Positions 8,737 to 33,519 of a stretch of 50,302 bases of DNA are shown here, piece after piece; position 1 is the stretch's first letter, and every line of letters begins with the position of its first letter. The notes under the pieces were generated by a model. It worked only from the letters and a program-made list of their open reading frames with translations, was not told where the DNA came from and searched no databases. The stretch is taken from NCBI GenBank assembly GCA_032718475.1, contig JAUCBJ010001485.1:1-50302 (forward strand), written 5' to 3'. The DNA is from Nemertoderma westbladi (Eukaryota > Animalia > Xenacoelomorpha). The position numbers and the translations under genes are program-made.

Positions 8737-10230
8737 TCACGTCTGTCCGAGATTTAAACATTCACTTTTTTTCTCGCTGACGTGTTTTGAATATTTTAAC
8801 GGAATCCTCTCGCACTGACTGTGACTCATCAATACACTTGTTGTTACCAAACACATTAACAACAGTTCTAAATACAATGTTCTTGTTAACTGCCGTGTGA
8901 GCGTCACAGCCAAATCTAAACTCCGAGTTGACACAAAAGTGTTGGAGTAATGCAAGCGCTAGATCGTCGTAGATGTCGTCGTAGATCGAATCGTAGATGT
9001 GAGGAAGTGCAACTGTCCCATTCCTCGACCTTGTATAAATGTTGCCATTTAATAACACCGGGAGGAACAGTATATACCGTGCTATTAAGAGAGTATTTAA
9101 ATGACTTATTGATCTTAAACCATCCCATTGAAGCAAGGTTGTTTCGAATATTCTTAAGAATATGAACCGGTCATACATTAAGTGAGGCGCATTTATGTTT
9201 GTTACAGTTTGCTATAAGCAGCAACGTTAACAGGCGCATTATCACCAATAACAGCAAGCAAGTTAAATTTAGTTTGTGATATTAACTTTCTACATGTCTC
9301 AATCCCCGTCTTAATAACCTCTTTATTGGCAGTAACCACCGGAACAGCGTGAATAATAACTGGGATCGAGTGTTTCATTGACGACACCATATAACACATA
9401 AGTCCAGTGTAAAGTTTGTCCGAATCAGAATCTTTCCCATATAAATGTCCGTCGCTATACATTTCCTGCTGTTGCATATAATCTCATCCACGATCAACAC
9501 AACATCGTTAGAGATCTTTCCCGAGGTTCTGAGAGCAGTTAATGCAGTCATCGAGTCTACATTTCCAGATGTAATACTTCGGAGAAGTCTCAGCGAAGGA
9601 AGAGGGACTTGCGAGTATCTTATACGCATTAACCGAGGTGTACCGGAGTAGCAATGCGAATCTGATCTGCTCAGCCGTATACTTTGGGTGACCTTTAGGT
9701 TTGGACAACCTTAAGGCCAACAGACTCCGAATAACTGAGTCAGATTCATCCTTATTAGTCCGGCAGTAATTGAGTAGTTCGGAAATAACAGTTGTTGATG
9801 TTATTATACAGTTATGAGTTGCTCGCAACCATGATGGTAGTGGTAGTGGACATGAAGGTCATCATCAATAGTGAGACATTCGTGTACTGAAGGAATGCCT
9901 AAACTAAAGATCAACCAAAAGATCGACACGGAATTCTCATTGACTTTTACCTCGTACTCCTCAAACTCAATCGACGCCTCTAAATACAACTGGATATCAA
10001 TAAGAGACAAAACTCGAGTTCTCTTACTGAACTCTTCCATCTCATCCCGCTGATACACTCGTTTCAAGGGTTTTTTGAGTGACGCAGTTACTTGTTTTAT
10101 AGAGGATACAGGGATACAGGCCGGGTATATCGAAGGAAACGCACCGGATTTTAGCGTTAAACATTGGGCATTCCTTTTGATCCATTGATCCTCAAAATGT
10201 AAAATACACACCTTGGAGTGATCATTAATA
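8737..10230 (-). pseudogene. P-element/THAP9-like DNA transposase remnant (frameshifted, truncated)
   Basis: It has the THAP tail KVCILHF..LKSGAFPSI, FALLLRYTSVNAYKIL/PLPSLRLL, the catalytic LIVDE and AVIGDN, and the D(2)H motif D.VHILKNIRNNL (~9140-9175, frameshifted). Confidence 0.85.
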
Positions 10231-11039
10231 ATTAGGCCTACCGATAATACAGTAATAATACAATAGGCAGATAGGCCCTAATACAGTAATAAAAATATTT
10301 CGACGCCGGCCACCGGCTGCATCAACAGGCCGAGTGCAGCATCTCTATTACAGTATTATTGCTGTATGGCCAATACAGCATATTATTGCAAATTATGCAA
10401 TAATAACACTACACAGAAATAATACAGTAATACATAATAGACTACAGGACCGAGGCTATCAGATACCGGTAACTACTGAACTAACTGACTAACAGTGAGT
10501 GACAGTACAGTTGTAGGCATAAAACATAATAAAGGACAGACAAGCGACAGTGTAGAGAACTCCTGATTTCTCTTTAATTAATTTCTTTATTTAACTAAGT
10601 TATTAGAAGCTTCTTGTAGGAAGTAATTAAGAAACAACCATTATTTATAAAGAGAATCAAGTAGGCCCACTAAATTTAGTGGGCTGCTGCAGCATACCAG
10701 GTCGTATTATAGTAGGTCAAGCCTAACCATTCCGATAACGCCTCAGAGAAAGGTTGACCTGGAAATACTACTTTTTTTTTAAACCAAAACATAAAATTAA
10801 GATATATAATACAACTTCCAATGCGATAAGCCATTGGACATATCCACCTATACATATCAACCATAGTTATAAAGTTACTATAGAGTTCGAATTAATGTTG
10901 GAAACCAGGGAATCTTCATTGTCCTCTACGTCCATTAGATGTCAATGTTCGCATTTGCCATGCGAATGGGGGCCTCCCAGCAGACTTGTCAATGTCGAGC
11001 GGTGCATGCACCTCGGAGGCACATTAGCCTGTCCAGATT

Positions 11040-11560
11040 TTAGATATCGATGGAAAATTTATAATTCTGTTGTAATTCGCAGATGAACTGGCAAACTATT
11101 AATAAAAATAGTCGGTGCAGTGAAGGAAAAGCAGCGACCACCGTAAGACTTTGAGGGTCCAGAGATAATTCGATCTTGTAGCATAGTAAATAGGTTTCAA
11201 TTGTTTAGTAGTCGGGTAAATTATTATTTAAGGCCTTCCATATTATTTCGCTTAACATTTATTATATTGAAACACGAAAGCAATTGGACAACAAGCCAAT
11301 ATAGTGGCTTATGAGCCGTTTGCCATATACAAGCAATGACACTGGTACAGTAGTAGTAGTAGTAGTTTTTTGACGATAGTATAGGACGATATACAGTATA
11401 TTAAATAATGTACAGTAATACAGATCATCCAATGAATAAGTTGAAATCTTAGAACTCTAATGAACATCTCCAATAAAATAAGTTTCTCTATCTGTACTCT
11501 TTCAAGCACATAGCACAGTTCTGCTCCATCGGCCCTTTTCAATTCTAACGTTGTGTGACA
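11040..11560 (-). mobile_element. Highly decayed L2/CR1-type LINE 3' fragment (duplicated at ~14590-15110)
   Basis: Minus-strand YGGRCFSFTAPTIFINSLPVHLR..IFHRYLKS and PLYWL..IWKALNNNLPDY resemble the L2 ORF2 C-terminus. Confidence 0.55.
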
Positions 11561-11704
11561 TCAAGCGTAGTCTATAGAAACTGACACTCAAATAATTGGG
11601 TGCATACTGTAACTTATTTGTGTATAACGGATGCGTACTGAGGTCTGTCTGGATTGAGAATTTCCCTGTATGTACAAAATTTAGTCGCTGTGTCCAGCCT
11701 TTAA

Positions 11705-13246
11705 CCCTTTCCAGCCCAGTGCTTTAAAATAAGTGTGGGCCAATGCTCCGTAAAATTGGAAAAATTGAAAGTTTTATTCAGAAATGTCCATTTTACTTTT
11801 CTTACACAAAATGATCTGTAGATTCCGAATTTCTGGATGATTTTTAATTTTTTTCAAAGTTATCGATTTATTGATTAGTTATTGATTTTGATCAATTTAT
11901 TTATCAATTAATTGATTTGTACAATAGTTCATAATTAAAAATAATTTTTACATATTCTGACTTAAATTTTTATGTAGAATTTGAATTTCAAGTAAAAAAA
12001 CATTTTTGAGCAAAATTTATTGATTGATTGATCAATTATTGATTTTTATTTATCAATTTATTGATCGATTCTTTGATTCAATAAGAAAATATATTTCTTT
12101 ACATTTTTTGACCCAAAACATTATGTAGAAATCGAATTTCGAGATAAAAAAATATTTTTGATTTCGAGTTATTGATTTATTGATCAGTTATTGATTTTGG
12201 GTGAACAATTTATTGATCGATTTTTGTTTCAATAGGAAAACATATTTCTTTACATTTTCTCTCCCAAAAACTTTTTGTAGAAATATAATTTCGAGATAAA
12301 AAATATTTTTTATCACAAGTTATTGATTGATTGATCGGTTATTGATTTTGATTGATCGATTCTGATTGATTGATTCGACAGTGAGGCTGAAATGGATCCT
12401 GGTCTGGATCAATCGATTTCCAAACATTGGATTCAGGGAGCATAAAGCAGTCATCGTCGTCATCGCTACTACCGGTACCACTAACACTGTCGTCGTCACT
12501 GCCAGCTGTGTCAGCCTCACTACCATCTTCGTCTATGTCTTCATCTGAATCCACTCCCGAAAAACCATAAGAATGGGGTGGTTTTCGTTGCCGTACTGGG
12601 TATGGCATTCTCAGCCAATTTCCAACACTAGCTGACTAGGGCGTTAGGTCTAGTCCAGTAGTCGGCTACCGGTATATCCTACACGACTATATCCGGGTTG
12701 TTACATTCGCATGACAATACCGTAGTGTCCGACAGTCCGAAATTATAGCAAATTATAATGGCTGAATGGAAATATTACTACTTAGGGATGGACTATTTAG
12801 GGTTAGTACCTAGGTTACTTACCGGTAGGCAGTAACCAAAACAATAAACAAACATCTATTGGTGCAATAAGACAGCCTACAGGCCTACCAGTAACAGAAT
12901 CCAGACTTCGGTACCTTAGATAATGTCTAAACGTATGGGGGGGGGGGGGGGGGGCTAAGGGGAATACTGATGTATAACAAGTCGTATAAAGCCTTGAATG
13001 TACAATTGTACTGAACTGCAGTATCAATACAACACTCTAATAAGGCCTAAATAGGTTTGAATTTACCGCCAAAAGTTGGTGTGCAGCATATTATATTGCC
13101 TAGAAATGCTCCAACAGCTCACAGAACATCCCTAGTACTGCTCTACAAAACAAACAAGCCGTACATCTCAAAGGATAACCATGGCATAAATATATGCCAT
13201 GGAGCATTTAGTGGTGGCATAGATATATGCCATGGGCTGGAAAGGG
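11705..13246 (-). mobile_element. Non-autonomous piggyBac element (internally deleted)
   Basis: It has 14-bp terminal inverted repeats (TIRs) CCCTTTCCAGCCCA / TGGGCTGGAAAGGG at a TTAA-containing target, and the empty site is present in duplicate copy 2. It carries an acidic transposase-like N-terminal remnant (12339-12608), twin GGCATA.ATATATGCC palindromes near the right end, and AT-rich internal tandem repeats (~11800-12360). Confidence 0.9.
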
Positions 13247-15930
13247 TTTAAAGAGTTTTTAACTAAATATTATCTGTCCTCTGTATGAATATTTAGTTGC
13301 TGGATTTATATATTGGTATTGGAATTATTATTATTATTTTATTATTAGTAATATATAGTCAATGGATAACTCGCAACCATGATGGTAGTGGTAGTGGACA
13401 TGAAGGTCATCATCAATAGTGAGACATTCGTGTACTGAAGGAATGCCTAAACTAAAGATCAACCAAAAGATCGACACGGAATTCTCATTGACTTTTACCT
13501 CGTACTCCTCAAACTCAATCGACGCCTCTAAATACAACTGGATATCAATAAGAGACAAAACTCGAGTTCTCTTACTGAACTCTTCCATCTCATCCCGCTG
13601 ATACACTCGTTTCAAGGGTTTTTTGAGTGACGCAGTTACTTGTTTTATAGAGGATACAGGGATACAGGCCGGGTATATCGAAGGAAACGCACCGGATTTT
13701 AGCGTTAAACATTGGGCATTCCTTTTGATCCATTGATCCTCAAAATGTAAAATACACACCTTGGAGTGATCATTAATAATTAGGCCTACCGATAATACAG
13801 TAATAATACAATAGGCAGATAGGCCCTAATACAGTAATAAAAATATTTCGACGCCGGCCACCGGCTGCATCAACAGGCCGAGTGCAGCATCTCTATTACA
13901 GTATTATTGCTGTATGGCCAATACAGCATATTATTGCAAATTATGCAATAATAACACTACACAGAAATAATACAGTAATACATAATAGACTACAGGACCG
14001 AGGCTATCAGATACCGGTAACTACTGAACTAACTGACTAACAGTGAGTGACAGTACAGTTGTAGGCATAAAACATAATAAAGGACAGACAAGCGACAGTG
14101 TAGAGAACTCCTGATTTCTCTTTAATTAATTTCTTTATTTAACTAAGTTATTAGAAGCTTCTTGTAGGAAGTAATTAAGAAACAACCATTATTTATAAAG
14201 AGAATCAAGTAGGCCCACTAAATTTAGTGGGCTGCTGCAGCATACCAGGTCGTATTATAGTAGGTCAAGCCTAACCATTCCGATAACGCCTCAGAGAAAG
14301 GTTGACCTGGAAATACTACTTTTTTTTTAAACCAAAACATAAAATTAAGATATATAATACAACTTCCAATGCGATAAGCCATTGGACATATCCACCTATA
14401 CATATCAACCATAGTTATAAAGTTACTATAGAGTTCGAATTAATGTTGGAAACCAGGGAATCTTCATTGTCCTCTACGTCCATTAGATGTCAATGTTCGC
14501 ATTTGCCATGCGAATGGGGGCCTCCCAGCAGACTTGTCAATGTCGAGCGGTGCATGCACCTCGGAGGCACATTAGCCTGTCCAGATTTTAGATATCGATG
14601 GAAAATTTATAATTCTGTTGTAATTCGCAGATGAACTGGCAAACTATTAATAAAAATAGTCGGTGCAGTGAAGGAAAAGCAGCGACCACCGTAAGACTTT
14701 GAGGGTCCAGAGATAATTCGATCTTGTAGCATAGTAAATAGGTTTCAATTGTTTAGTAGTCGGGTAAATTATTATTTAAGGCCTTCCATATTATTTCGCT
14801 TAACATTTATTATATTGAAACACGAAAGCAATTGGACAACAAGCCAATATAGTGGCTTATGAGCCGTTTGCCATATACAAGCAATGACACTGGTACAGTA
14901 GTAGTAGTAGTAGTTTTTTGACGATAGTATAGGACGATATACAGTATATTAAATAATGTACAGTAATACAGATCATCCAATGAATAAGTTGAAATCTTAG
15001 AACTCTAATGAACATCTCCAATAAAATAAGTTTCTCTATCTGTACTCTTTCAAGCACATAGCACAGTTCTGCTCCATCGGCCCTTTTCAATTCTAACGTT
15101 GTGTGACATCAAGCGTAGTCTATAGAAACTGACACTCAAATAATTGGGTGCATACTGTAACTTATTTGTGTATAACGGATGCGTACTGAGGTCTGTCTGG
15201 ATTGAGAATTTCCCTGTATGTACAAAATTTAGTCGCTGTGTCCAGCCTTTAAAGAGTTTTTAACTGAATATTATCTGTCCTCTGTATGAATATTTAGTTA
15301 CTGGATTTATATATTGGTATTGGAATTATTATTATTATTTTATTATTAGTAATATATAGTCAATGGATTTCCATATCAATGAAAGGTTTCCGGATCCAAG
15401 CAACCTATCCAAAATGAGTAGCCTGGAGCCCCCAATTTACCAGTGTTTCCGCATTCTTCAATTTATTCCGACAATGGGTAGCAGTTGAGTTTATTGAATC
15501 GGTTGGTTACCTGAGCAACGACCTTGTTGATACGGTCTTTCGAAATAGGATAATCTATGGTGGCAGTGTCATAGACTCCAGTGTAGCTACAAACTTACAA
15601 GTATCAACCTTGCTATGAGTTAAACCTTTATTCCCCAATTTTGGAGTCGCACAACTCATTGAATAAATAGTCCCGACTAAATTCTCTGACCTAAGAGCGA
15701 TAAGTGAAAGCATTTCCCCAGGATGGAGCGATGTATCTAAGAAAGTGCCGCATGCTCCAAATCACTCTGCAACTGGATAACACTGACAGCCTTGACGAAT
15801 TGGACTGCGTCGGAGGTCGCCAGAGCCAGGTCTATTTCAGAAATCCATGTATCACCCCTGCGGAATTTGAGCCCTCCCCCCAAACACGGAGTCGAGTCAT
15901 GGGTAGTTATTCAATCGGATGTCTGTTATT

Positions 15931-18670: not shown

Positions 18671-18782
18671 GTAAGTTCATTATGGGTTGTTACTGGTAAA
18701 TTAACATGAAAACTGCAAGCAACACGAGCTACAAGCTCTCGTTTCAGATGTTTCATATCGATTAAATAAATAATATGAGCCT

Positions 18783-19475
18783 TGTACACGGTTCCATTTA
18801 CTTAGTATTCTGCAAACAAAAATGGCCATATGGATGATTTAGATCAGCAGAACTTCTGTGCAATATTATATATTTGGGGCCCCATTGGATCAGTTATTGC
18901 ATTTAGTTGCCCCTATAGAAGACTACTTCGTCTTCTTAATGCTTTATGACAGTATTATATCAGGCGCTGATCCAATGTAACCCCCCTTGTGTAACTGTTA
19001 TAATGTTGTGCAGTGCATACATATTAATTTATTGAGTTGGCCTGTAATCTATCCTAAGTGATTTCTAGTGTAACTGCCAATGGGATTGCTTAGTGAGCAA
19101 CCAGCTGGAGTGAATTGATTACCACATTGTTCTTTGTACATTTCTGCATATTTAAGGCAGTGTAGTTAATATCCCGGCAGTCACCTAGAGTCATTTACGG
19201 TAACGATATTATTAGGTGTTTACCCGTTTATACTGGGAGCACAAATTCTTAAGATTGTTATTCATATTATATTATTATTAGAATATACTATCTCTAATCT
19301 GAATTCTCTCTTTTATAATTTGTTAACAACCATGCATAAAATGGAAACAGCGTTCCTGGGAGAGCTCCTATTCCTCACCGATAGATCCTTAGCCCCAATC
19401 TAGTTTCTGCTGCTAGCCGATCAACTCAATTCTTTCCCTTTCAAAAAACTCACGAACCTAACGCATTCGTGTACA
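18783..19475 (+). repeat. 5' LTR (693 bp)
   Basis: It has an 8-bp terminal inverted repeat TGTACACG...CGTGTACA and matches 29004-29696 apart from one substitution seen by eye. Confidence 0.97.
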
Positions 19476-19476
19476 A

Positions 19477-19488
19477 TAAGAATTTGTG
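19477..19488 (+). promoter_or_regulatory. Putative self-priming PBS TAAGAATTTGTG (complementary to LTR positions 19240-19251)
   Basis: It lies at the PBS position, 1 nt after the LTR, and lacks TGG. It is the exact reverse complement of CACAAATTCTTA inside the LTR. Its function is inferred. Confidence 0.6.
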
Positions 19489-20215
19489 TGCAGCGAATTG
19501 GTGCGTTCCATCTCGCCGAAAGAGTTGAAGTTTTGGAAGCAGACTATCTGTTGGACTACGGATTTTCTAAAGGAGACATCGTATCTAAAGGTTGATCTTA
19601 TCTATCTATTCACCGACTCTAGGATGATTAGAGAAATTTCTTTATCAGGCTAAGTACCCGTTATTTATTACTTCGTGACTGAATGAAATTCTAACAGGCT
19701 ACTAAACTCGATTCAGAAGTTATTCTCGCTAACATTGCGTCATATGTTTTCCGGTCGTTAGGGACACATCGGGCAAACCGACGTTGTTTGTCCGCCGGTA
19801 CTCTCGTATCTGTAAACGAGGGATTATAATCCCTAGCCTCACGAAATAATTTTCGTTGTGTTAGTTACTTTTGGCTGTTTTTTTTTTAAGTTCTGCTGAT
19901 CGTATTTTGGTACATTGGTTTAATGATTTCGGCCAATGATTTTATAATTTGTTAATATTCTGTCATAATTTTTGCAAGACGACTCATACTGCCCGGTGCG
20001 AAAACCATTCATATCCGGTCGGTTGTTTTAAGACAATTTTTACCCTGATCTTTCCGTATTATAAACGGAATTATTATACCGTTGGTGAGCTCTGTAAATA
20101 ATTGGTTTAATTATTTTCAGGTTGCCTGCGGGTAATTTACCTTTTGTATGCTTGGTTTATTTTGTGTTAAATTTTTTAGGACTTTAGTATACTGCACGTT
20201 TATTGCTACAAGAAA

Positions 20216-23200
20216 ATGTCAAGTCTTAATGTTGGTATAGGACCTGGATCCCCAAGGAGTGGAGTGTCTCTGGTTGGTGACCCGTTGCTGGTTGGCGCCC
20301 CCATCGCTGACCTCACTGCGGCAAGTCATTCCGAGTTGGTGTCCGGCCACAAACCGTCCATTCCAGCACCAGCTGATATCACATTAAGTACAGCGGTCGC
20401 GTTGAAAAGGTCTCACTATCGGGGTGAGCCGTGTTATGATGAGGGCCCGCGGCATGCCCCCATTGGTTCAGCAAAGGGCCCCTTAACTCGCCTGAGGGGC
20501 AACGGTGCCCCCAGCTCAAACATGGTTGCTAGTGTGACAAGTGTGGGTACCATAAACCGAGGTTTGGGACAACTCTATCGCCACCTGGAATCGGAGTGTG
20601 AGGAGATCAACAAAGCACGGGTAAGTTCCACTGTTGACTCTGCCATTTTATACACACTGACACAGAAACTCATTGCCAGGTTTGTCAAGATTAAGGATCG
20701 TGTAACACAATTAGAGCGTTACTATGAGTGTAATGGAACCAGAGAGGACTATGAACAGGTAACTTCTAAGTTTAATTATTATAGAGACTTGTACCATAAA
20801 GCTATTGAGACTCCAGCTCATTCTGTAAGTATCCAGGTCACTCCCCCTAGAGAAGTAATTAAAGCTATTACCCACCCGCCCTCAGAGGTACAGAATCTGC
20901 AAAGGACATCCGGTGAAGTATTAAACTCTAATTATTATGGCCCGCCTGGGCCAGAACAGGTAGTTGGTGGCACCGCTAATTTAAACATCGATGCTTTAAA
21001 TCCCAATAAGGTTAGTACTTACTCTGTGGGACATGGGGTCCCTAGGCAAAGACAGGTTAGTGTGGGGGGTGCATCACATTTGTCAGGTAGCTCCTCGAGC
21101 TCATCCAAAGTTCAGCGGCTCGCCGAAGCCAAATTAGCAGAACTAGAAAGCATCCAGGCTCAAGAGACCCTTAGGCGCCAGGAAATTGTTGACCATGAAC
21201 GCCATCGTATTCAAGTAGACCTTGAGGCTACACGAATTTCGGAGGCCGGCCAAGAAACTATCTTGAAAGCCACAAAAGCAGCTGAGAAGGCTAAGGAACA
21301 AGCAGATGAAGAAACTAGGAAGGCAGAAGCACAGGCCATCAAAGCTGTTGCTGAGGTCAAACGTGTAGCTGCGGCCAATGAACGTCTACAGGTACTTGAA
21401 AGTGCTGAGTTATGGTGTCGAGCGCAAAATGTCAGGGACCAATGTAGTCTTCGCACCAGAATTTTGGAAGCTGAAGGCAGCGCCCCTGAAGGTGAGGAAT
21501 TCGCCAGTGTAATGCATGTTGATTTGCCTCTAGTTGCAACCGGATATTCAGTGGCCCATCCAGAACCTGCAAGCACAAGTACCAGCCAGTTTGTTCCACA
21601 GGTACGACAGGTAGACAAACCCATATATTCCAGTAACATAGGTGATAGCATATTTACTACACCGCAGCCTGAACATCAACCGTCTACTCGACCACATCGA
21701 CTGAAATTTGACAATCATGTTCAGGCTGCTCGTACTCCTAGGTTTTTAGATAGACAAGTTAAAAGTAGTTCCACTCACACTTACACCCTCAGTCTAGGTA
21801 AATCTCCTGAAAATCATTATATTCCCCAACCTAGTAAGGGCGACCTTCCTTGTGCCCAGGTGCTTTATAAAACATCAGATAGTGAGCATCTCCCACAAGA
21901 TGAGCCAGGTTCCGTCATAGAACCCCCCAATTGGGAACCTCCCATAGAAAGGGCCCCTTACCAGTTATCTAAGGGACCGCTGACCCCACAGTTTTATGCA
22001 AGGCCAACCTACTTAGATCAGCATAACAATAGTAGTGAGTCCCACAACCAATGCAGATCACAAAACAACACTGACCCAGTCATACACCACAAGGGGTATA
22101 CTGATAGGAGTAGGCACCTTGACTCCAGGAGAACTGGAGGCCATCTGTCTGGTGATCCTGGTGGGGGGCCCAGTGATCCCGACAGTGATAATGACCGATC
22201 TACAGACCGGCGGGGCAGAGATGGACGCCAATCACGTCGTACCTCCCCTAGACATTATTCATATAATTCACCCAATATGGGAATGTTAGAGGTTTATGAG
22301 CGTTTAGCATTGGCTCTAGAAGCCCCACGAGCTGACCCAACGCCATTTCTTGGGGATCCCAAGAAATTTGTGTCTTTTAAAAATCGCTTTATGGCTCAAG
22401 TGCATTCGAAAGATGTCACTGATGACATCAAATTACGCCATTTGGTCACCTATGTTAAAGGTGAACCTCTGGACCTCATAGAGCATTTTGAGGGTATGAC
22501 TAATGGATATCAGCTGGCATGGGAAACCCTAGAAAAGAACTATGGGAATCCGGCTTTAATAATTAAGGCTGTCATCGAGGATGTCACACGATGTCGCTTT
22601 CCCATAGAAACACCTAGTGATGTAAGGAGGTATGCCCATGATGTGCGACGCACTATGGATGTGCTATGGACTTTAAATTGCCCACAGTACGTCAACAACC
22701 CCGATTTTATTCAGCGAGTAGCTGTGAACCTTAATGATAGGATGAGGTTACGGTGGGCGAGGAGAGTTGCTAGGTTTAGACAGGACCGAGGAAGTGACCC
22801 AGGACTTAGACAGTTAGTGGCTTTCTTAGAAGAGGAATCTGACGTCCTAAACTGTCCTATGTATGGTAGGCCAGCTGCTGAATCTATTCTCAGAGAAAGG
22901 ATGGGGGACAAATTCCATGGTTTTGGGACAAAACCATTGCCATTAGCAGGTGACAAGTGTGACCGCTGGGCTGCTCGTGATGTTCATCACGTCCCGGAGA
23001 CACCACGCTTCCCCTCAATCGACGGTAAACAACGGCTTATGACGTCATTCCATGAGGAACATTGTGTAGTTCCTGAGGTTATGGAGGAACCATCCTTTTC
23101 AGAAGCTAGCGGTGTGGATACTGACAACATTGATAAATTTTCCTGTGAGGCTTATGCAGTAAATCCACAGCATTCCTGCCAAATGTGTAAGGAGAATCAT

Positions 23201-26200
23201 GGTTTATTTAACTGTCAGCGGTTTCGTGAAATATCTCCGAGGGCAAGGTGGGAGTTTGTAGTTGAACATAAGCTATGTCTGAGATGTTTGAGACGTGGAC
23301 ATTGGCGTGATGGGTGCAAAGCCCAGTTCCGTTGCAAGGAGTGTCAGCGACCCCATTCCTCACTGCTGCACCCCGAAAATTTTGAAACAAAGGACACTGA
23401 TGAGCGACTAAAAAACTTTTATGCGGCGAAACGAGACGATGCCTCTTCGAGACTAAAGGATTACTTACCAGATAAGGTAACACAGAGTAGGCCACCATAT
23501 GGAATATATCAAAGAGTAACAGCTATGGCTACTGATATGATGGACCGCAGAGTCCAGGGGACAGATCAGACTGCTTTAGCTGCGGTATTCCTTAAGGTAC
23601 TCCCTCTAGCGGTTTCAAATGCCGCAACTGGGGCAGTACTGACTACATTTGTGCTGCTCGATGACGGTTCTACAGGTACGTTTTTGGACGCCCATGTAGC
23701 GAAGTGTTTAGACATGAACTTGCAGGCGCTAAATATTTCAATTAATACTGTACTTACTAAGGATGAAACCAGAACAGTTATGCAGAGTAACTGTCGAGTA
23801 TCATCAGTAATGCCAAACACCGACATGGTTCTGGCGCTAAATGATGTGGTGGTCATGGATGGACTAAGTTTGAGGTATTCTAGACCGGGGTCGTGGTCTC
23901 TAGAACAACTGTCTTATTTGAGGGACATAGACTTAGCATATCCAGAAGTGGATGTTGACAAGATTTCCATGATTGTTGGCTTAAATAATCCGTTGGTGCA
24001 CAAAACACTTGAGGAGGTGTGGGGTCCAACAGATTACGACAAGTTGCACAATCCTCACGCAGTTAGAACACCTTTAGGTTGGACATTAGCAGGTCCCATT
24101 ACATCAACTGTGGCAAACTCATGCTTGGGCTCGAATGAAAATTATAAGGCATCTGCTGATTCATCCCCTCGCATACGAAATGGCTCAGTAGCTCAACCTC
24201 TTGAATTATTAGGAGCATCAACTAATTTTGCTGACAATAAGGATAAAGTCTTTGTATATCATATAGACTGTTGTCCCTGGAGGGGAGACAACAGAATGGA
24301 CGACGAAATAACATCGGACTTGATGACTAAGTATTTTGACTCAGAAGCATTTTATTGTCCATCTAAAATGCAGACCAAATCAGTAGAGGATCGCAGGTGT
24401 GAGGAAATTTTAGATGCCACTACAACCTTTGTTAACGGACACTACTCTGTAGGTATGCTGTGGCGTGATGCTAACAAACCATTAATCAATAATAAACAAC
24501 TTGCTATTTCCCGATTACGTTGGATTAAGCGAAAGTTAAAGGGTATGCCCGAGGAACATAAAAAGTACCAGGAAGCTCTACATGACTATGAAATAAAGGG
24601 TTATGCTCGTAGGTTATCAATGGAAGACAAATTAGCACCAGACGGACCAAGGAAATATTATGTCCCTACTCATCCTGTTTGGAATCCAAATAAGCCAGGT
24701 AAACTGCGCATAGTTAACGATGCAGCCGCCACATATCGAGGTATGAGTTTAAATAGTGAACTTATGGAAGGACCTAACAATTATAACTCGATCCTGGATG
24801 TTCTACTTAGATTCAGGGAACATAGGTTTGTATTTGCATGTGATGTAGCCGAGATGTTTCATCAGGTTAGGACTCCTCCGAGGGACTCTCAATCTCAGAA
24901 TATCCTATGGTATGAAGGTGATGTTGAACCAGCCGATTTTAGTGGATATATTGTTTATCAGATGCTAGTTAGCATGTTCGGGGCCAAGGACTCTCCTTGT
25001 AGGGCCACCCATGCATTACGTAAGACAGCGCTAGATAATGTAGCATTGTTTGACGACAAAATAATTAAAGCAATAATACATGACTTTTATGTAGACGACG
25101 GACTACATGGTGCAGAAACAATAGACGAGACTGTGAAAACCGCCCTCGGTATTATTGAATGCTTAAAGCTTGGTGGGTTCACGTTAACAAAGTTTTTGTC
25201 GAATTCGCGCGATGTGCTTAAATGTATTCCAGCCGATAGACGTGCTAAAGAAGCAATAGACCTCAATTTTGATGAATTACCTGCGACGCGCGCTCTGGGT
25301 GTGAAATGGATGCCAGAGACGGACTACTTCACTTTTAAGATCTTTAATGAGAAGTGCACCCCCTCAAAGCGAGGCTGCGTGGCAGCAGTAGCATCTGTGT
25401 ATGACCCATTAGGTCTTATAGCGCCAATATTACTCAAGGGTAAGCAATTTATACAAAAATTATGGAGTCAGAAACTGGCATGGGACACAAAACTAGACAT
25501 TAAACTAGACACAGAGTGGAATGCTTGGTATGCGAATCTGCCAGTACTGGCGAAGTTAGAGATTCCGCGTTCATATTTTTATGGCCAAGTTAGAGACCCT
25601 ACAGACATCTACGAACTACATCACTTTTGTGACGCTAGTAAAGTTGGTTACGGTTGCATATCTTACATTAGACGAGTACAGAGATTGGGGGACATAACAT
25701 GCGCCATGGTGCACGCTAAGACTCGGACGGCTCCAATCAAACAGGTTGATATCACAAGGTTAGAGTTGCAGTCAGCACTACTTCTAGTCCGCAGTCACAG
25801 ACAGATAATTAATGCACTCACATTACCGTTTGATGCTATCTGGTTTTATTCAGACTCCAAAATAGTACTTTGCCAGATAGCGAACGAAGCGCGTAAGTTC
25901 GACACTTATGTAGCCAATCGTGTAGAAGAGATACATAGATTTACCATTCCAGAACAATGGAGGCATGTTCCCGGGAGTAAAAACCCTGCGGATATAGCTA
26001 GTAGAGGGGTAAGTCCAGACGACTTCGTTGAAATATATCAGGACTGTTGGTTCAAGGGACCACGTTTCCTCAGTCAACCAGTTGACCAATGGGAGGGCAG
26101 CATGCGTGGTGGGAACCCAATGGGTGGTATAGACATTCCTAAAGAATGTGAGTTAAAGCAAATTAATACTAAACAGACAAGGTCGAAAGTTGTGAGCGCA

Positions 26201-27766
26201 ACCGACGTACAGAAATGCATTCCAGATTTAATTGGGCGATTTCTGCAACACTACAGTGATGTCACCAAATTGTTTCGAGTTGTGTCATATTTTTTGATAA
26301 AAATACGCAGAATTCGACATAAACGATCAGGTAAGGTTAGCAACCTACCGGAATACAAACTTCGTAATGAATGCTTAGAGCAAGCTAAACTGAAAGTTTT
26401 GCTGCTGGTACAGCATGACGCCTATGGAAAATATACCGACGACATACGGACAGGTAAGTTACACAGAGTACCTAGATCTTTAGCTGGATTGTGTCCATTC
26501 ATTGCTGATGATAACTTAATACGTATGAACACTCGAGTCGCTATTGTAAACACCGTAAGTTACCAGACAAGTAACCCTATAATTCTACCAGCAGGACACC
26601 ATGTAGTGGTAATACTTGTAAGAAAAATTCACCAGGACTGTGCACACATGGGCGTAGACTATGTGATAAATAAAGTAAGACAGCAATACTGGATATCAGC
26701 ATTGCGCCGTTTAGTAAAAGCCATATTACATAAATGTTTTATATGCCGTAAGCGACTAGCGAAACCAGGCAGCCAAATTATGGCGCCTCTACCGGCAGCA
26801 AGAGTTATCGAGTATTTACCTCCGTTTTCTCATACCGGCGTTGACTTGTTTGGTCCTTTCTACTTGGTCCGTGGGCGTGGCTCAGTGAAACACTTTGGAG
26901 TGATATTTACTTGCATGACGTCACGAGCAGTGGCCTTGTATTTATCGATAAACTACAGCGCAGATGCGTTATTGTGTGTCTTACGTAGATTTATTTGTCA
27001 TTACGGGGGGGTCGAAAGATTTTACAGTGACCAAGGGACTCATTTTACAGGGGCCGAAACGGAGTTAGGAAAACTGCTAGAAGAAGCTAGAGCTAAGAAT
27101 ATATCCACCAACGGAATTATGGCAAACAACTGGTGTTTTAATACGCCATCAGCGTCATGGCACGGTGGTGTATGGGAGAGATTAATCAGGACGACTAAGG
27201 ACTGTCTGCGATCAATGATTGAGACTCGTAACTTGAAACACAAATTGCTGTCCGAGGAAGTTATGAGGACCATGCTTGCAGAAATTCAATTACTTATTAA
27301 TGACAGACCTTTATGCGCCTTAACAGATGACGTAGACTCTTTCGACGCTTTAACCCCAAATCATTTATTATTGCGAAGAAAAATTGGTGTACCATTTCCA
27401 GCTCATTTTCCACACGAGATTTACAATGACGATGAACTTTTTCACTGTCGTAAGATGTGGACTTTGTCACAATTTTTGTCAAGTCAGTTCTGGTCCAAGT
27501 GGAAAGAGGTGTATGTGGACAGCTTAAAGCGACGACAAAAGTGGCTCAAAACTGAGCGCAACTTTGCTATTGGTGACTTAGTACTGGTAATGGAACAGAA
27601 CGTACGACGTCATGACTGGTGTGTCGGACGTATTGTGGACATAGTTCCAAGCGATGACGGGCTTGTGCGGACAGTTCATGTGAGGACAAAATCTACTGTA
27701 TTGTGTCGCCCTATTAGGAAATTATGTTACTTAGAGGTGAGTATGGACAGCACTAATCATAAATAA
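20216..27766 (+). CDS. BEL/Pao Gag-Pol polyprotein, 2516 aa
   Basis: It contains a DUF1759-like Gag (PTPFLGDPKKFVSF), three Cys/His knuckles (CQMCKENHGLFNC, CLRCLRRGHWRDGC, CKECQRPHSSLLH), protease LLDDGS, AVRTPLGWTLAGP, RT KLRIVNDAA..FYVDD, RNase H HHFCDAS..ELQSA..SDS, and integrase H..HMG..CFIC, GVDLFGP, SDQG, VWERLI. The order is PR-RT-RH-IN. Confidence 0.97.
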   Translation: MSSLNVGIGPGSPRSGVSLVGDPLLVGAPIADLTAASHSELVSGHKPSIPAPADITLSTAVALKRSHYRGEPCYDEGPRHAPIGSAKGPLTRLRGNGAPSSNMVASVTSVGTINRGLGQLYRHLESECEEINKARVSSTVDSAILYTLTQKLIARFVKIKDRVTQLERYYECNGTREDYEQVTSKFNYYRDLYHKAIETPAHSVSIQVTPPREVIKAITHPPSEVQNLQRTSGEVLNSNYYGPPGPEQVVGGTANLNIDALNPNKVSTYSVGHGVPRQRQVSVGGASHLSGSSSSSSKVQRLAEAKLAELESIQAQETLRRQEIVDHERHRIQVDLEATRISEAGQETILKATKAAEKAKEQADEETRKAEAQAIKAVAEVKRVAAANERLQVLESAELWCRAQNVRDQCSLRTRILEAEGSAPEGEEFASVMHVDLPLVATGYSVAHPEPASTSTSQFVPQVRQVDKPIYSSNIGDSIFTTPQPEHQPSTRPHRLKFDNHVQAARTPRFLDRQVKSSSTHTYTLSLGKSPENHYIPQPSKGDLPCAQVLYKTSDSEHLPQDEPGSVIEPPNWEPPIERAPYQLSKGPLTPQFYARPTYLDQHNNSSESHNQCRSQNNTDPVIHHKGYTDRSRHLDSRRTGGHLSGDPGGGPSDPDSDNDRSTDRRGRDGRQSRRTSPRHYSYNSPNMGMLEVYERLALALEAPRADPTPFLGDPKKFVSFKNRFMAQVHSKDVTDDIKLRHLVTYVKGEPLDLIEHFEGMTNGYQLAWETLEKNYGNPALIIKAVIEDVTRCRFPIETPSDVRRYAHDVRRTMDVLWTLNCPQYVNNPDFIQRVAVNLNDRMRLRWARRVARFRQDRGSDPGLRQLVAFLEEESDVLNCPMYGRPAAESILRERMGDKFHGFGTKPLPLAGDKCDRWAARDVHHVPETPRFPSIDGKQRLMTSFHEEHCVVPEVMEEPSFSEASGVDTDNIDKFSCEAYAVNPQHSCQMCKENHGLFNCQRFREISPRARWEFVVEHKLCLRCLRRGHWRDGCKAQFRCKECQRPHSSLLHPENFETKDTDERLKNFYAAKRDDASSRLKDYLPDKVTQSRPPYGIYQRVTAMATDMMDRRVQGTDQTALAAVFLKVLPLAVSNAATGAVLTTFVLLDDGSTGTFLDAHVAKCLDMNLQALNISINTVLTKDETRTVMQSNCRVSSVMPNTDMVLALNDVVVMDGLSLRYSRPGSWSLEQLSYLRDIDLAYPEVDVDKISMIVGLNNPLVHKTLEEVWGPTDYDKLHNPHAVRTPLGWTLAGPITSTVANSCLGSNENYKASADSSPRIRNGSVAQPLELLGASTNFADNKDKVFVYHIDCCPWRGDNRMDDEITSDLMTKYFDSEAFYCPSKMQTKSVEDRRCEEILDATTTFVNGHYSVGMLWRDANKPLINNKQLAISRLRWIKRKLKGMPEEHKKYQEALHDYEIKGYARRLSMEDKLAPDGPRKYYVPTHPVWNPNKPGKLRIVNDAAATYRGMSLNSELMEGPNNYNSILDVLLRFREHRFVFACDVAEMFHQVRTPPRDSQSQNILWYEGDVEPADFSGYIVYQMLVSMFGAKDSPCRATHALRKTALDNVALFDDKIIKAIIHDFYVDDGLHGAETIDETVKTALGIIECLKLGGFTLTKFLSNSRDVLKCIPADRRAKEAIDLNFDELPATRALGVKWMPETDYFTFKIFNEKCTPSKRGCVAAVASVYDPLGLIAPILLKGKQFIQKLWSQKLAWDTKLDIKLDTEWNAWYANLPVLAKLEIPRSYFYGQVRDPTDIYELHHFCDASKVGYGCISYIRRVQRLGDITCAMVHAKTRTAPIKQVDITRLELQSALLLVRSHRQIINALTLPFDAIWFYSDSKIVLCQIANEARKFDTYVANRVEEIHRFTIPEQWRHVPGSKNPADIASRGVSPDDFVEIYQDCWFKGPRFLSQPVDQWEGSMRGGNPMGGIDIPKECELKQINTKQTRSKVVSATDVQKCIPDLIGRFLQHYSDVTKLFRVVSYFLIKIRRIRHKRSGKVSNLPEYKLRNECLEQAKLKVLLLVQHDAYGKYTDDIRTGKLHRVPRSLAGLCPFIADDNLIRMNTRVAIVNTVSYQTSNPIILPAGHHVVVILVRKIHQDCAHMGVDYVINKVRQQYWISALRRLVKAILHKCFICRKRLAKPGSQIMAPLPAARVIEYLPPFSHTGVDLFGPFYLVRGRGSVKHFGVIFTCMTSRAVALYLSINYSADALLCVLRRFICHYGGVERFYSDQGTHFTGAETELGKLLEEARAKNISTNGIMANNWCFNTPSASWHGGVWERLIRTTKDCLRSMIETRNLKHKLLSEEVMRTMLAEIQLLINDRPLCALTDDVDSFDALTPNHLLLRRKIGVPFPAHFPHEIYNDDELFHCRKMWTLSQFLSSQFWSKWKEVYVDSLKRRQKWLKTERNFAIGDLVLVMEQNVRRHDWCVGRIVDIVPSDDGLVRTVHVRTKSTVLCRPIRKLCYLEVSMDSTNHK

Positions 27767-27888: not shown

Positions 27889-28272
27889 CTACTTCACAGT
27901 GAAGAACCTCACACACTGATACTGAAATTACATTACACATGCCACACACTACAGTTTGTGGGAATCCGACGGCGTTCTATTCGGCCTACAACTTTTTCAA
28001 CGCGACGTCAATTCAATTCTCGCTATGAACTAAAATTATTTAATAATTACCTACGTCGGCTCATACTTCCAAATTCATCAACCGTTCGGCGGCGCGGGTG
28101 CACACCAGCTTCGGGTCTTCATCCAGAGGTTCTTTACTTCGAAGGGACCTTGTCAAATACGGATTTCAATAATGAAACGGAACCAGATATGTTTCTTTAT
28201 TATTTGTTCAATAGGGAAGTAGAGTACAACCCAATTCTATTCCCTGATGAACATTTTTTAGAGTTTGCTTAA
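27889..28272 (+). other. Open frame downstream of pol (127 codons), unknown product
   Basis: The frame is stop-free from 27889 to 28272 with no ATG near its start. A candidate acceptor ttcacAG lies at 27898-27899. No recognisable domain. Confidence 0.3.
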
Positions 28273-28427: not shown

Positions 28428-28730
28428 TTTTGTGTTTATGTAAGTTTCACTATTACTGTATGTACGACAGAACATTTTTGTGTTTATGTAAGTTTCACTA
28501 TTACTGTATGTACGACAGAACATTTTTGTGTTTATGTAAGTTTCACTATTACTGTATGTACGACAGAACTTTTTGTGTTTATGTAAGTTTCACTATTACT
28601 GTATGTACGACAGAACATTTTGTGTTTATGTAAGTTTCACTATTACTGTATGTACGACAGAACATTTTGTGTTTATGTAAGTTTCACTATTACTGTATGT
28701 ACGACAGAACATTTTTGTGTTATGTACGTT
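28428..28730. repeat. 47-48-bp tandem array (~6 copies) in the BEL 3' UTR
   Basis: The unit is TTTTGTGTTTATGTAAGTTTCACTATTACTGTATGTACGACAGAACAT. Confidence 0.95.
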
Positions 28731-28985
28731 TCAATATGTTAGTTAATATTATATGTACTGTAATTATGAGAGGTATCTGTATCTATATTTAATATGTACG
28801 ACATAATGAATCACATCCTGAATTATATATATTTTCAGATCAGATATCCTATATTTTAAAAATAAACCATTTTTTCAAAATTTGAACTGATTGTTTCTCT
28901 TATTTTTTCTATCTTTGTTTTATGACATAATAATAGTGCCTACTGTTGTGAACCGATTTGCTTCGTAATCTATCCTGTACACATC

Positions 28986-29003
28986 AGGAAAGATTAGGGG
29001 GAC
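28986..29003 (+). promoter_or_regulatory. Polypurine tract of the BEL element
   Basis: AGGAAAGATTAGGGGGAC lies immediately before the 3' LTR. Confidence 0.8.
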
Positions 29004-29696
29004 TGTACACGGTTCCATTTACTTAGTATTCTGCAAACAAAAATGGCCATATGGATGATTTAGATCAGCAGAACTTCTGTGCAATATTATATATTTGGGG
29101 CCCCATTGGATCAGTTATTGCATTTAGTTGCCCCTATAGAAGACTACTTCGTCTTCTTAATGCTTTATGACAGTATTATATCAGGCGCTGATCCAATGTA
29201 ACCCCCCTTGTGTAACTGTTATAATGTTGTGCAGTGCATACATATTACTTTATTGAGTTGGCCTGTAATCTATCCTAAGTGATTTCTAGTGTAACTGCCA
29301 ATGGGATTGCTTAGTGAGCAACCAGCTGGAGTGAATTGATTACCACATTGTTCTTTGTACATTTCTGCATATTTAAGGCAGTGTAGTTAATATCCCGGCA
29401 GTCACCTAGAGTCATTTACGGTAACGATATTATTAGGTGTTTACCCGTTTATACTGGGAGCACAAATTCTTAAGATTGTTATTCATATTATATTATTATT
29501 AGAATATACTATCTCTAATCTGAATTCTCTCTTTTATAATTTGTTAACAACCATGCATAAAATGGAAACAGCGTTCCTGGGAGAGCTCCTATTCCTCACC
29601 GATAGATCCTTAGCCCCAATCTAGTTTCTGCTGCTAGCCGATCAACTCAATTCTTTCCCTTTCAAAAAACTCACGAACCTAACGCATTCGTGTACA
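29004..29696 (+). repeat. 3' LTR (693 bp)
   Basis: It is a direct repeat of 18783-19475 and is followed by the TSD AGCCT. Confidence 0.97.
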
Positions 29697-30521
29697 AGCC
29701 TTTTACAAATATATTATTATATTTCAATCATCCTAATATTTTTTTCAATCTCATATATCAATTAGTTCAAAATATCGTTTTACTTCTGCGATAACTCCAG
29801 TGGAAGCAGCCCTCCACCAACGTCATCCCCTTCTTACCAAAGGAATTGTCCATATAGTAGGGGGGGGGGGGGGGGGGATGGATCAAATCCCAACATTTGT
29901 GGATTCCAGTTTGGACCCCTTAGACCTTTTCTAGCATATGAATGGAATTGCTGGTGCAAATATTTACAAAAAATATTTAGAATTAGCAACTTCTGGACAC
30001 TTTTTGTACATATACAATTTTCCGCTATATTTTAATGGTGATCGTTTCAATGTCCGGTGATTGTTTCAATGTCGGTTAGTCATCATTTCCAGTCATTTTA
30101 TGAAGTCTATTTCAGTCTCGGTTCTCAGTTAAACTGCATTGATCGATAGTACATTTCTAGGTGTAGACTGATATCTATCTACCTATTTTAGTGGAAAATG
30201 TGAGATATAATGTTATGCATCAAGCACTTTGGGTGTGGGACCTAAATGATGGGCCATGTCAGCTTGATCCATTACTAGGTAGCGCCATGGGCCTTTGGCC
30301 TCATGTCTGTTTATGTATAACTACATGTAGGATAGTTTTGGCATGGCCTTATCTGGCCTTTCGGTTTTGGTTTTATCATCTTACCGGTACGTCTGTCAGT
30401 TGACGCTTGAGCAACACTACTGCTGTATTGCATTACCAATATACCTTCAGGCCTTACTGCCTTACCTGTTGTGTTTTCACCTCTTGCATATTGGAGTATT
30501 ACCTCTTACCACTTATTGGCG

Positions 30522-30532
30522 TGGTGGCAGCG
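30522..30532 (+). promoter_or_regulatory. PBS TGGTGGCAGCG (tRNA-Leu-type)
   Basis: It abuts the 5' LTR and is complementary to the 3' end CGCUGCCACCA typical of animal tRNA-Leu(AAG/TAG). Confidence 0.75.
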
Positions 30533-30864
30533 ATATCTTACCTTTGCCTCGCCTTGCTCCTTCATCTCAACACGACAAGTGCGTCAGCATATGGCATACA
30601 GGTCAGCAGGTATATCTTCTTACCGTCGTAGCCTAAATCATAGGCTGTGATATAGGCCTACCTAATACCGCGTCTCAACTGCAGAACTAACCCAGAACTG
30701 TACTACTTACCACTACCGGTTGCTGGTTGAGCCAACTGACAACCAACAACCAAACTGTGAATATTACCTATAGGGCCTAGCCATAACCAGATTCGGATTC
30801 ACAGACAATAATTACCGTCCTTACCGGACTGCTGGATAACCATACCTATCTTATCAGTTCACAA

Positions 30865-32802
30865 TTGCCTGTCTATATATACGTCGTACAACTCAGTCTG
30901 CCAGTCCGACTCTACTTAGCATTATTACTACATATACCGGTACCCCAGTACCTACCACAAAAAAAAAAGCTCCTGGTAAACTGGTCAGCCGATATCCAGT
31001 ATCCGCATAGAACACCGATATGTCCACAGCGACAGGTTCCCTACTTACTACAAAAATTATACCTCTCTAAAGTTGAAACCATTAATACCTTTGAAACATG
31101 GAGACAGAATCTTTTATACACTTTAGCTTTAGACCCAGCCTTTGCCCCATTCACCCTTGATTCTGCCCACTGGGAAAAGAAATCTCGCCTTTCTCCTACC
31201 CGTGGCTTTGTGGATGATGGGACTGATATTCCTGCTACATGGCGCTGCACTGCAGCACAAAAGGTAGTAGCCCTAGAACTTATGCTAGGGCAAATAGCAA
31301 ATTATTGCCCCATTGTATCTAGAAATTCAATAGTTAAAACGTCCACTTCACTCCAATCTATGAATGAATCCTCTATATCTCCAGTTATTCGTTCGACGGC
31401 TAGTTGTGAGATGGATGATGATCTTGACCATCCATTATATACAACTCGCTCAACTTGGCTAACCACACAGTCTGAATGTCCAGATCTAAATCGTGTTAAG
31501 GCTCACCTACTCCAAGGCACCCATCCCTCAAAGAAGTTGACCAACATTCGAGATACAAAACGGTACTTAGGGGTAGCTTCACTATCCCGTGATGGACTAG
31601 TTGTCGTTAGAAGGGAACGGACCTTCATCGGAGCTCAAGAACAAATTGTTGTCCCAAGGCCATCTCTCATTGGCTTATTAACTGCACTCCATCTCCAACT
31701 TAATCACTTTTCTAGATCATTCTATGCACTTGATATTGATCCAGCTATTTCTTCTGTTGTTACCAATTGCCACCAATGTACATCGCTTGCGACTGCCCCT
31801 AGACGTGAAATTCCACAATCTACCACCAAATCCCCTCTTCATATGGGATCATCATTTGCTGCTGATGTCATTCGGCGTGAAAAGCAGTATATATTAGTCA
31901 TCCGTGAATCAATCACATCATATACCTCCGCATGTCACTTATCTGATGAAACTGCCACTAGTCTACGTGATGGCCTAATCCGCCTATGTATTAACTTTTG
32001 CCCATGTAATGGTCCCCCTGCTGTAGTTCGCGTAGACCCTGCTACAGGATTCCGTTCCCTTGTAAAAGATACCAAACTTTCGCAATATAATATCACACTG
32101 GAACTTGGTGATGCCAAAAATCCTAACAAAAACCCTATCGCCGAACGTGCTATTCAGGAGGTCATAGGAGAGATGTTGAAAGTAAACCCTTCAGGTGGTC
32201 CCATCTCCCCAACATTCCTAGCTATTGTCATTACCAATGTAAATTCCAGAATTCCGAATCAAGGTCTCTCATCACGCAAAATTCTCTTTCAAAGAGACCA
32301 ATTTAATTCCAGTGCTATCCCTGTTGATGATGAATCCATCGTCCATAACCAACATGCTTCTCGCCAGTTAAACCATCCATCCAGTGTTGGTTCAAAGAGC
32401 CATGGTTCCAGGTCCAACCCTACATCAACAATTTGTGTTGGCGATATTGTTTACGTATACGCAGATGGATCTAAGTTACACAGCCGACCTCGTTATATCG
32501 TTTGTTCAATCAATGGGAAATGGTGTTTTCTAAGAAAATTCACCAGGAACCAGTTCCGAGAACGTTCGTATCGCGTTTTAACTTCTGAATGCTACAAGGT
32601 TCCTGGTGGACACTGTTCTCATGATCATATACCTACCAAACCCACTGATGTCTTCGACTCTTCTGATGATGGTTCCTACTCATTCATTGGTCCTGGCATG
32701 GATGGCGATCCTACAAATCTCACCAATGTTGAACCTCACCAGACAGCTGAAGCGGATCCCCCACTCCGGCGCTCCAAACGTCGACACCTACCGCCAGCCT
32801 AA
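30865..32802 (+). CDS. In-frame fusion of Gag N-terminus to retroviral-type integrase
   Basis: The Gag-like ETINTFETWRQNLLYTLALDP..LELMLGQIANYCP is joined at ~31355 to an integrase with HLQLNH..CHQC, FAADV, VRVDPA, IAERAIQE and VGDIVYV. The probable native ATG (31020) is out of frame. Confidence 0.75.
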   Translation: MPVYIYVVQLSLPVRLYLALLLHIPVPQYLPQKKKLLVNWSADIQYPHRTPICPQRQVPYLLQKLYLSKVETINTFETWRQNLLYTLALDPAFAPFTLDSAHWEKKSRLSPTRGFVDDGTDIPATWRCTAAQKVVALELMLGQIANYCPIVSRNSIVKTSTSLQSMNESSISPVIRSTASCEMDDDLDHPLYTTRSTWLTTQSECPDLNRVKAHLLQGTHPSKKLTNIRDTKRYLGVASLSRDGLVVVRRERTFIGAQEQIVVPRPSLIGLLTALHLQLNHFSRSFYALDIDPAISSVVTNCHQCTSLATAPRREIPQSTTKSPLHMGSSFAADVIRREKQYILVIRESITSYTSACHLSDETATSLRDGLIRLCINFCPCNGPPAVVRVDPATGFRSLVKDTKLSQYNITLELGDAKNPNKNPIAERAIQEVIGEMLKVNPSGGPISPTFLAIVITNVNSRIPNQGLSSRKILFQRDQFNSSAIPVDDESIVHNQHASRQLNHPSSVGSKSHGSRSNPTSTICVGDIVYVYADGSKLHSRPRYIVCSINGKWCFLRKFTRNQFRERSYRVLTSECYKVPGGHCSHDHIPTKPTDVFDSSDDGSYSFIGPGMDGDPTNLTNVEPHQTAEADPPLRRSKRRHLPPA

Positions 32803-33519
32803 TTGAGGGAATATGTATGCGACTTTGACTCTGATGATTAGCTTATCACTCTCATGTTCTGAAGCATCCAGTATCAAATAGAACAATACGTATTATACAA
32901 TTATAAGTATTATTGAACGATTAGTAGATAATTTTATGTGTATAAATAATTGTGCTAACTGTAGCATGTATAAACATGTATTAATCCAAGCTTTGTAGTT
33001 CTTAGTGTAACCGTATTATAGATTTACGAACTGAAACCTAAGAACAGGAAAAAAAACTAGTTGCGCCATGGGCCTTTGGCCTCATGTCTGTTTATGTATT
33101 ACTACATGTAGGATAGTTTTGGCATGGCCTTATCTGGCCTTTCGGTTTTGGTTTTATCATCTTACCGGTACGTCTGTCAGTTGACGCTTGAGCAACACTA
33201 CTGCTGTATTGCATTACCAATATACCTTCAGGCCTTACTGCCTTACCTGTTGTGTTTTCACCTATTGCATATTGGAGTATTACCTCTTACCACTTATTGG
33301 CGTAGCCTAATGTCCTGAATGGACTACACTTGTGCTGTTGTGTTTGTTACTATATAAAATACTAACCAGATAACCTCATACTGTAATTCAAATATTAATA
33401 AATACTAGTCTACCTGATTACACCTTGTTCCTTACTGCTTCCTCCAACACCATGTTTCTTCAAATTCTATAGAACTTAGTTTATTGATTATTTTTTAAAT
33501 ATTATCAGTGACTAGCGAA

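Follow-up and report, generated by a model that had tools for sequence, protein, structure and literature searches.

The xenacoelomorph Nemertoderma westbladi carries a young, intact BEL/Pao retrotransposon that probably primes minus-strand DNA synthesis with an RNA segment derived from its own LTR instead of a host tRNA. The branch that includes many of its distant relatives likely starts DNA copying with its own RNA as well, as judged from their LTR sequences. Among the LTR elements of animals, BEL/Pao is one of three major superfamilies. Self-priming itself is known, and it would be new for BEL/Pao, which is described as tRNA-primed. The element lies in a stretch of 50,302 nucleotides, which we call the window (Table 1).

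Structure and family of the element

The two LTRs of the element differ by one mismatch over 693 bp, AGCCT stands on both sides, and the gag-pol frame is open from 20180 to 27766 with its first ATG at 20216, in agreement with the initial annotation of a young, intact BEL/Pao element. The frame contains DUF1759, Cys-His knuckles, a protease, a reverse transcriptase (YVDD), RNase H motifs, an integrase and DUF5641, and its Pfam matches were Peptidase_A17, DUF1759, an integrase zinc finger and DUF5641 (PF05380, E 1e-43; PF03564; PF17921; PF18701). The Pao-type Pol with the order PR-RT-RH-IN, the BEL gag (DUF1759), the TG..CA LTRs, the polypurine tract and the target duplication are all those of BEL/Pao (Belpaoviridae). 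The ICTV profile of this family describes an 18-nt tRNA-Arg/tRNA-Gly site, host-tRNA priming and a length of 4.2-10 kb (PMC8742986). The window element agrees with it in its LTRs, single gag-pol frame, domain order, polypurine tract and 5-bp target duplication, but lacks the tRNA-Arg/Gly site behind the 5' LTR and, at 10.9 kb, is slightly longer. Belpaoviridae are delimited by Pol phylogeny, and the tRNA site is only descriptive in the profile. Membership in Tf1/sushi goes with a Ty3/gypsy chromovirus-type Pol, and the Pol found here is of the BEL/Pao type; the element thus does not belong to that group, even if it may function as Tf1 does.

The closest homologues share at most 46% protein identity with the element (RT-RNase H). 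Those with names come from cnidarians, echinoderms, hemichordates and one nemertean, and none of the named BEL/Pao clade references (Sinbad, Suzu, Pao, BEL, Tas, Dan, Flow and Sailor) was among the matches. Neither ARAGORN, run on the window, nor Rfam, run on the element, gave a match, and there was no sign of an element-encoded tRNA-like primer. The element is present in three DNA sequencing runs of one organism (X1, X2 and X3), and the read depth in these runs suggests several copies.

Table 1. Coordinates of the element and of the predicted priming signals in the window.
Feature	Position	Strand	Remarks
5' target-site duplication AGCCT	18778..18782	.	same AGCCT flanks the 3' end
5' LTR	18783..19475	+	693 bp, TG..CA; from self-comparison
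Favoured TATA-like box TATTTAAG (predicted)	19149..19156	+	no difference listed in the sister LTR
Initiator-like CAGTC (predicted)	19178..19182	+	predicted start A19179, 30 nt after the TATA-like box
Alternative TATA-like motif TATTATTA	19207..19214	+	would give a start near 19240
Predicted self-primer segment	19239..19252	+	19240-19251 perfect, G19239 wobble, 19252 is A in the window copy
Primer-binding-site position, without TGG	19476..19489	+	complementary to 19239-19251
TGG-initiated motif (rival, displaced tRNA site)	19499..19507	+	23 nt behind the LTR end
gag-pol, single open frame	20216..27766	+	2516 aa counted from the first ATG
Tandem array, 47-bp unit	28428..28737	+	in the 3' untranslated region (1.2 kb)
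Polypurine tract	28986..29002	+	5' of the 3' LTR
3' LTR	29004..29696	+	693 bp; from self-comparison
3' target-site duplication AGCCT	29697..29701	.	

A complement between the LTR and the site behind it

The LTR segment 19240-19251 is the exact reverse complement of 19477-19488 (12 nt), G19239 can extend the duplex by a wobble pair with U19489, and the 3' end of the segment faces U5. The initial annotation had described this complement, and had placed the LTR end at 19475 with no TGG directly behind it; its coordinates proved correct, the first TGG being 23 nt away. A complement of at least 12 nt at offset 0-3 arose in 15 of 20,000 dinucleotide shuffles of the LTR (7.5e-4). When mock LTR ends were set at every window position, 0.33% reached the same complement, a rate inflated by an unrelated long inverted repeat in the window. 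In duplexfold, the two 21-nt segments formed 13 stacked pairs (-16.0 kcal/mol). A binding site complementary to the element's own LTR-derived sequence, with the 3' end of the segment towards U5, is the way in which Tf1 works. Two observations support self-priming: the complement exceeds chance in the only position at which a primer has to bind, and relatives preserve the match between LTR and PBS although its sequence differs among them.

In host DNA contigs (one per run, from two studies), position 19252 is T at summed depths of 358/438 in X1, 333/355 in X2 and 612/612 in X3, and T19252 would pair with A19476 and so lengthen the duplex to 13 pairs, right up to the LTR end. No variant inside either 12-mer was listed in these contigs, which drop rare variants. 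The X1 contig has the same flank as the window insertion; X1 may therefore be the window's own source.

The duplex had a mean pair probability of 0.95-0.98 in folds of 19179-19500 or 19240-19500. When the fold was extended to 19560, its probability fell to about 0, and forcing it cost 6-7 kcal/mol. Tf1 has a stem between U5 and the leader, and a stem of this kind (19460-19475 with 19487-19507, -15.3 kcal/mol) would cross the duplex in the window element. We rejected it as a conserved Tf1-like feature, as a comparison of own with swapped segments in 16 elements gave no general energy excess; for the window element itself, 4 of 30 swaps were as good.

Promoter motifs and transcript start

Two TATA-like motifs had been pointed out in the LTR, one at 19207 and one about 60 nt further upstream at 19149, and the promoter motifs favour the upstream one. 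TATTTAAG at 19149 stands 30 nt upstream of A19179 in CAGTC, which we take to be initiator-like. A diverged sister LTR in the host contigs, about 85% alike over 19138-19244 and readable for only 30 bases past 19244 so that its primer site is outside the view, shows no listed difference within the 19149 box, has lost just 2 nt between this box and 19179, and carries 8 inserted bases at 19205-19211, in and around the 19207 motif. A TATA box was recognisable in 4 of 15 intron-type relatives (described below), 142-224 nt before the donor, and in none of the other 11 under the same strict pattern, which deliberately took in the TATTTAA variant. We consider a start at A19179, with the paired segment internal and about 60 nt after the cap, appreciably more probable than a start at 19240.

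If transcription did start near 19240 from TATTATTA, the first 12-13 nt would be the primer, which is the strict Tf1 mode and a sub-case of self-priming. The pyrimidine-purine step C19240-A19241 lies 33-34 nt behind this motif, and the experimentally known self-primers, in the available parts of two papers, are all 5'-terminal (PMC7175516, PMC4600332). The insertion in the sister LTR and the upstream TATA boxes of the four relatives argue against this mode, and we regard it as rather unlikely. Of the proposal made in the initial annotation, tRNA-independence is thus what the complement and the relatives favour, while a start near 19240 with the first 11-12 nt as primer is the less likely reading.

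The alignment of the sister LTR (X1, X2 and X3; 19138-19244) ends inside the predicted primer segment. Its following bases resemble the segment to about the 13th position and then diverge, a break that, speculatively, is the pattern expected of U3/R exchange at the cut site. In addition, short contigs from X1 and X2 match window positions 19245-19290 from 19245 or 19246 on and are unrelated upstream, where one of them ends in a pyrimidine-rich CAG; they may represent an intron-type relative or a chance match in AT-rich DNA.

Complements in related elements

Relatives comprised 79 metagenome loci and 26 loci from a genome collection, the latter evidently animal DNA binned with prokaryote genomes; two scans of viral contigs found no related locus. 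Full BEL/Pao elements stand in records labelled as prokaryote genomes (L082 and others), and one two-LTR copy lies inside a 1.44-Mb Wolbachia chromosome record, either as host contamination or as a real insertion.

Read by eye, the LTR ends were of two kinds; that of L038 was set one base off. TGG-type loci have TGG 0-5 nt behind the LTR (8/8 loci). Self-type loci lack TGG there, and their post-LTR bases match their own LTR, usually only after the bases before a GTAAGT-like donor are joined to those after a pyrimidine-rich AG. Among 19 self-type relatives, TGG was absent within 40 nt in 10 and scattered at 10 to 33 in the other 9.

These distances bear on an alternative in which the TGG motif at 19499 is the site of priming by a host tRNA (Gly or Arg type) and the 12-mer is incidental. 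The motif resembles what we take to be a tRNA-Gly 3' end over about 9 nt, and it can also pair with U5 at 19460-19465. Priming there would follow the ICTV family rule of an 18-nt tRNA-Arg/tRNA-Gly site (PMC8742986). We nevertheless find it very unlikely, because the motif is 23 nt from the LTR end, far beyond the spacing of the TGG-type loci, because its use would put 23 surplus bases behind the terminal CA, and because self-type relatives show no such motif at a constant position.

The first test used 20 of the 79 loci, picked by eye because a single stretch holds both the LTR start and the gag start; any ACA or TATA could serve as the LTR end, in the null as well. Under strict splice filters, a complement of at least 10 nt was found in 10/20 loci against 15/1,260 in the null, and under relaxed filters, which were set after failures had been seen, in 14/20 against 30/840. 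Among the remaining six loci, two were of the TGG type, one had an uninterrupted 11-nt complement, and three showed neither feature.

The second test used 12 loci whose LTR end was fixed by two copies; in L073 the end was placed at TATA, 10 nt inside the aligned repeat. Three loci were TGG-type, all without a self-complement. Four had a junction complement (15, 11, 11 and 11 nt) that forms only across a predicted GT-AG LTR intron, L004 and L090 had a contiguous 11-nt self-complement, and three had neither TGG nor a self-complement. A self-complement of 11-15 nt was thus present in 6/9 non-TGG loci and 0/3 TGG loci, compared with 7 and 0 of 3,900 random internal sites and 2 and 0 of 156 swaps in the nulls. 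In every scored locus of this test, the complement replaces the TGG site and never accompanies it. The six loci first seen after the filters were fixed gave one TGG, one junction, one contiguous and three neither, so that all three failing non-TGG loci belong to this later-seen set. By eye, L095 was one base short, and L103 had a junction match of 12 nt that lay 8 nt away from the aligned end.

The initial annotation had proposed covariation between the paired segments as a check. Between distant families the complement is kept through sequence change, with 19 distinct paired 10-mers among 20 elements (mean identity 4.3/10). No covariation was seen within the element's own family or with the sister LTR, the primer site of which is out of view. 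The same variation bears on a tRNA half or another host small RNA pairing at 19476-19495. Half-tRNA primers occur in Copia lineages, according to the available part of one paper (PMC6317226), yet here the site varies by family and still fits each element's own LTR, a pattern not expected from a fixed set of host RNAs; we therefore hold such a primer to be highly improbable.

The pairing might also be structural, serving packaging, dimerisation or translation control, or be chance in one element, with priming by another route. The duplex does lie outside the predicted optimum of the longer folds, and the placement of the window element among self-type elements is not statistically secured; fungal GalEa Copia elements, in the part of their description available to us, have no PBS and a conserved hairpin of unknown role (PMC5445492). 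Against this stand the position and polarity, which are those of a primer, and the replacement of TGG by the complement in each scored locus, and we judge a structural or chance origin improbable.

The complement of the window element is contiguous, and its best junction match under the splice filters was 6 nt or none. By its sequence, the element appears as the contiguous, intron-less form of the intron-split complement found in most relatives. An intron at 19013-19239 would give a 16-nt complement, as AG stands directly before 19240 and one upstream GT adds 4 pairs. This junction was set aside for its weak splice sites: the GTGCAT donor and GAG acceptor fail both splice filters. Furthermore, there were 27 GT sites to choose from, the donor would lie upstream of the favoured TATA box, and the second exon would supply 12 nt, against the 3-8 nt that it adds to the complement in relatives. 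That the window element also splices its primer is therefore extremely unlikely.

The predicted LTR introns of L035 (L035:6213-6250) and L056 (L056:7152-7184), which form one branch, are only 38 and 33 nt long (approximate), with 3 nt of the complement from the second exon. Of 14 intron-type LTRs, 8 have AATAAA or ATTAAA at 11-86 nt behind the acceptor (L001, L019, L040, L043, L047, L061, L077 and L078), and the window LTR has only variant signals behind the primer segment (19282 and 19335).

Phylogenetic placement

In an RT-RNase H-integrase tree, the TGG-type (7 rows) and self-type (23 rows) elements were split on one branch with an SH-aLRT of 100. The tree was built with a mixture model and a quick search from the loci with a readable LTR end and the five top homologues, near-duplicates left out and L095 dropped for low coverage; it counts two near-misses on the self side and includes four rows labelled by eye only. 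Two further trees, one of them with six such rows, gave the same split. The window element falls on the self side on a long branch. Among the loci with a readable LTR, L001, with a junction complement of 11 nt, is the closest to it. Grouping it with the TGG elements was not rejected by the AU test (p 0.178). Given the long branch and this test, its membership in the self-type branch is likely but not secured. The contiguous forms (the window element, L004, L014 and L090) are scattered among the intron forms in this unrooted tree, so that a loss of the intron is something we infer.

Proposed priming mechanism

In the mechanism that we propose, transcription would begin at A19179, and the 19240-19251 segment would lie within the transcript, about 60 nt behind the cap. 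The segment is predicted to anneal to its complement at 19476/7-19489. The element's RNase H, by analogy with Tf1, may then cut just 3' of the duplex and expose a 3'-OH directed towards U5, from which reverse transcriptase would copy U5 and R back to the cut before transferring to the 3' LTR. Because the primer would serve as template for the new PBS, the two segments would stay matched.

According to the available parts of two papers, the first 11 bases of Tf1 pair with the PBS and RNase H cuts between bases 11 and 12 (PMC7175516; PMC4600332). Tf1/sushi elements are described as self-priming, and the same mode is predicted for Tcn1 and for the TAR lineage of Copia (PMC6317226; PMC4600332). 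As far as these sources go, the window element resembles Tf1/Tf2 of S. pombe, Tj1 and other Tf1/sushi elements in its lack of a tRNA site, in a PBS that perfectly complements a short segment of its own LTR in primer polarity, and in an RNase H suited to the cut, present in the window element as motifs. Unlike them, it is a BEL/Pao element (Peptidase_A17, DUF1759 and DUF5641), its segment is probably internal rather than 5'-terminal, most of its BEL/Pao relatives have the segment split by a predicted spliceosomal intron, and the conserved U5-leader stem of Tf1 was not found in its relatives. Self-priming of the TAR lineage of Ty1/copia (Houba, Osr-1) and of the plant Tcn1 clade was likewise predicted from LTR-PBS complementarity, TAR being a prediction outside Ty3/gypsy; these belong to other superfamilies and hosts, and an intron-split primer is not mentioned for them in the available part of the paper (PMC6317226).

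We found neither self-priming nor a primer made by splicing reported for BEL/Pao in literature listings or in the available parts of open papers (PMC3118150, PMC554778, PMC3601003, PMC8220671, PMC3286476, PMC6934838 and PMC5445492); within this scope, the initial annotation's statement that it knew of none stands. The BEL/Pao diversity paper (PMC3118150) and the Sinbad paper (PMC554778) make no mention of a PBS or tRNA in the parts available.

A wider scenario is possible, and we put it forward tentatively. In a large BEL/Pao branch of marine animals, tRNA priming may have been replaced by a primer cut from an internal part of the element's own transcript, which in the ancestral form arose once the spliceosome had removed an intron from the LTR. 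The window element would then represent a precise intron loss, as expected from reverse transcription of a spliced 3' LTR, and have its primer ready-made. Reverse transcription would in that case be licensed by splicing, and the intron could persist only by remaining unspliced in the 3' LTR. If a tRNA-free BEL/Pao branch is real, it would be a further independent origin of self-priming, would account for PBS-based annotation missing such elements, and would be expected to evade control exerted by 3' tRNA fragments. An internal or splice-made primer would tie reverse transcription to RNA processing, which is not described for Tf1, and the young, multi-copy, intron-less window family would offer a natural contrast to intron-bearing families.

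Other features of the window

Within the element, the longest match between LTR and internal sequence is a 14-nt perfect complement between U3 (18842-18855) and the 5' leader (19888-19901), which could pair the 3' LTR with the leader end to end in the transcript; as one among about 9,500 positions, it is only modestly unlikely. The 3' untranslated region also includes a GC-rich patch (near 28030-28180), which had no Rfam match.

A second, decayed BEL-like gag/protease region lies at 35941-37888 on the minus strand, with an LTR-like end at 40747 that resembles that of the window element; behind this end there is neither TGG nor a self-complement (5 nt). A 671-aa open frame without a Pfam match is enclosed by 249-bp direct repeats (98%) at 30274-33303. 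The region 9822-15368 contains a 1,883-bp segment twice without a difference, at a distance of 3,548 bp; this duplication is either recent or an assembly artefact. In addition, the window contains a MITE-like inverted repeat at 44341-44824 (arms of 169 nt, 93% complementary) and, at 2853-5013 on the minus strand, fragments of another retroelement (RVT_1 and integrase zinc finger).
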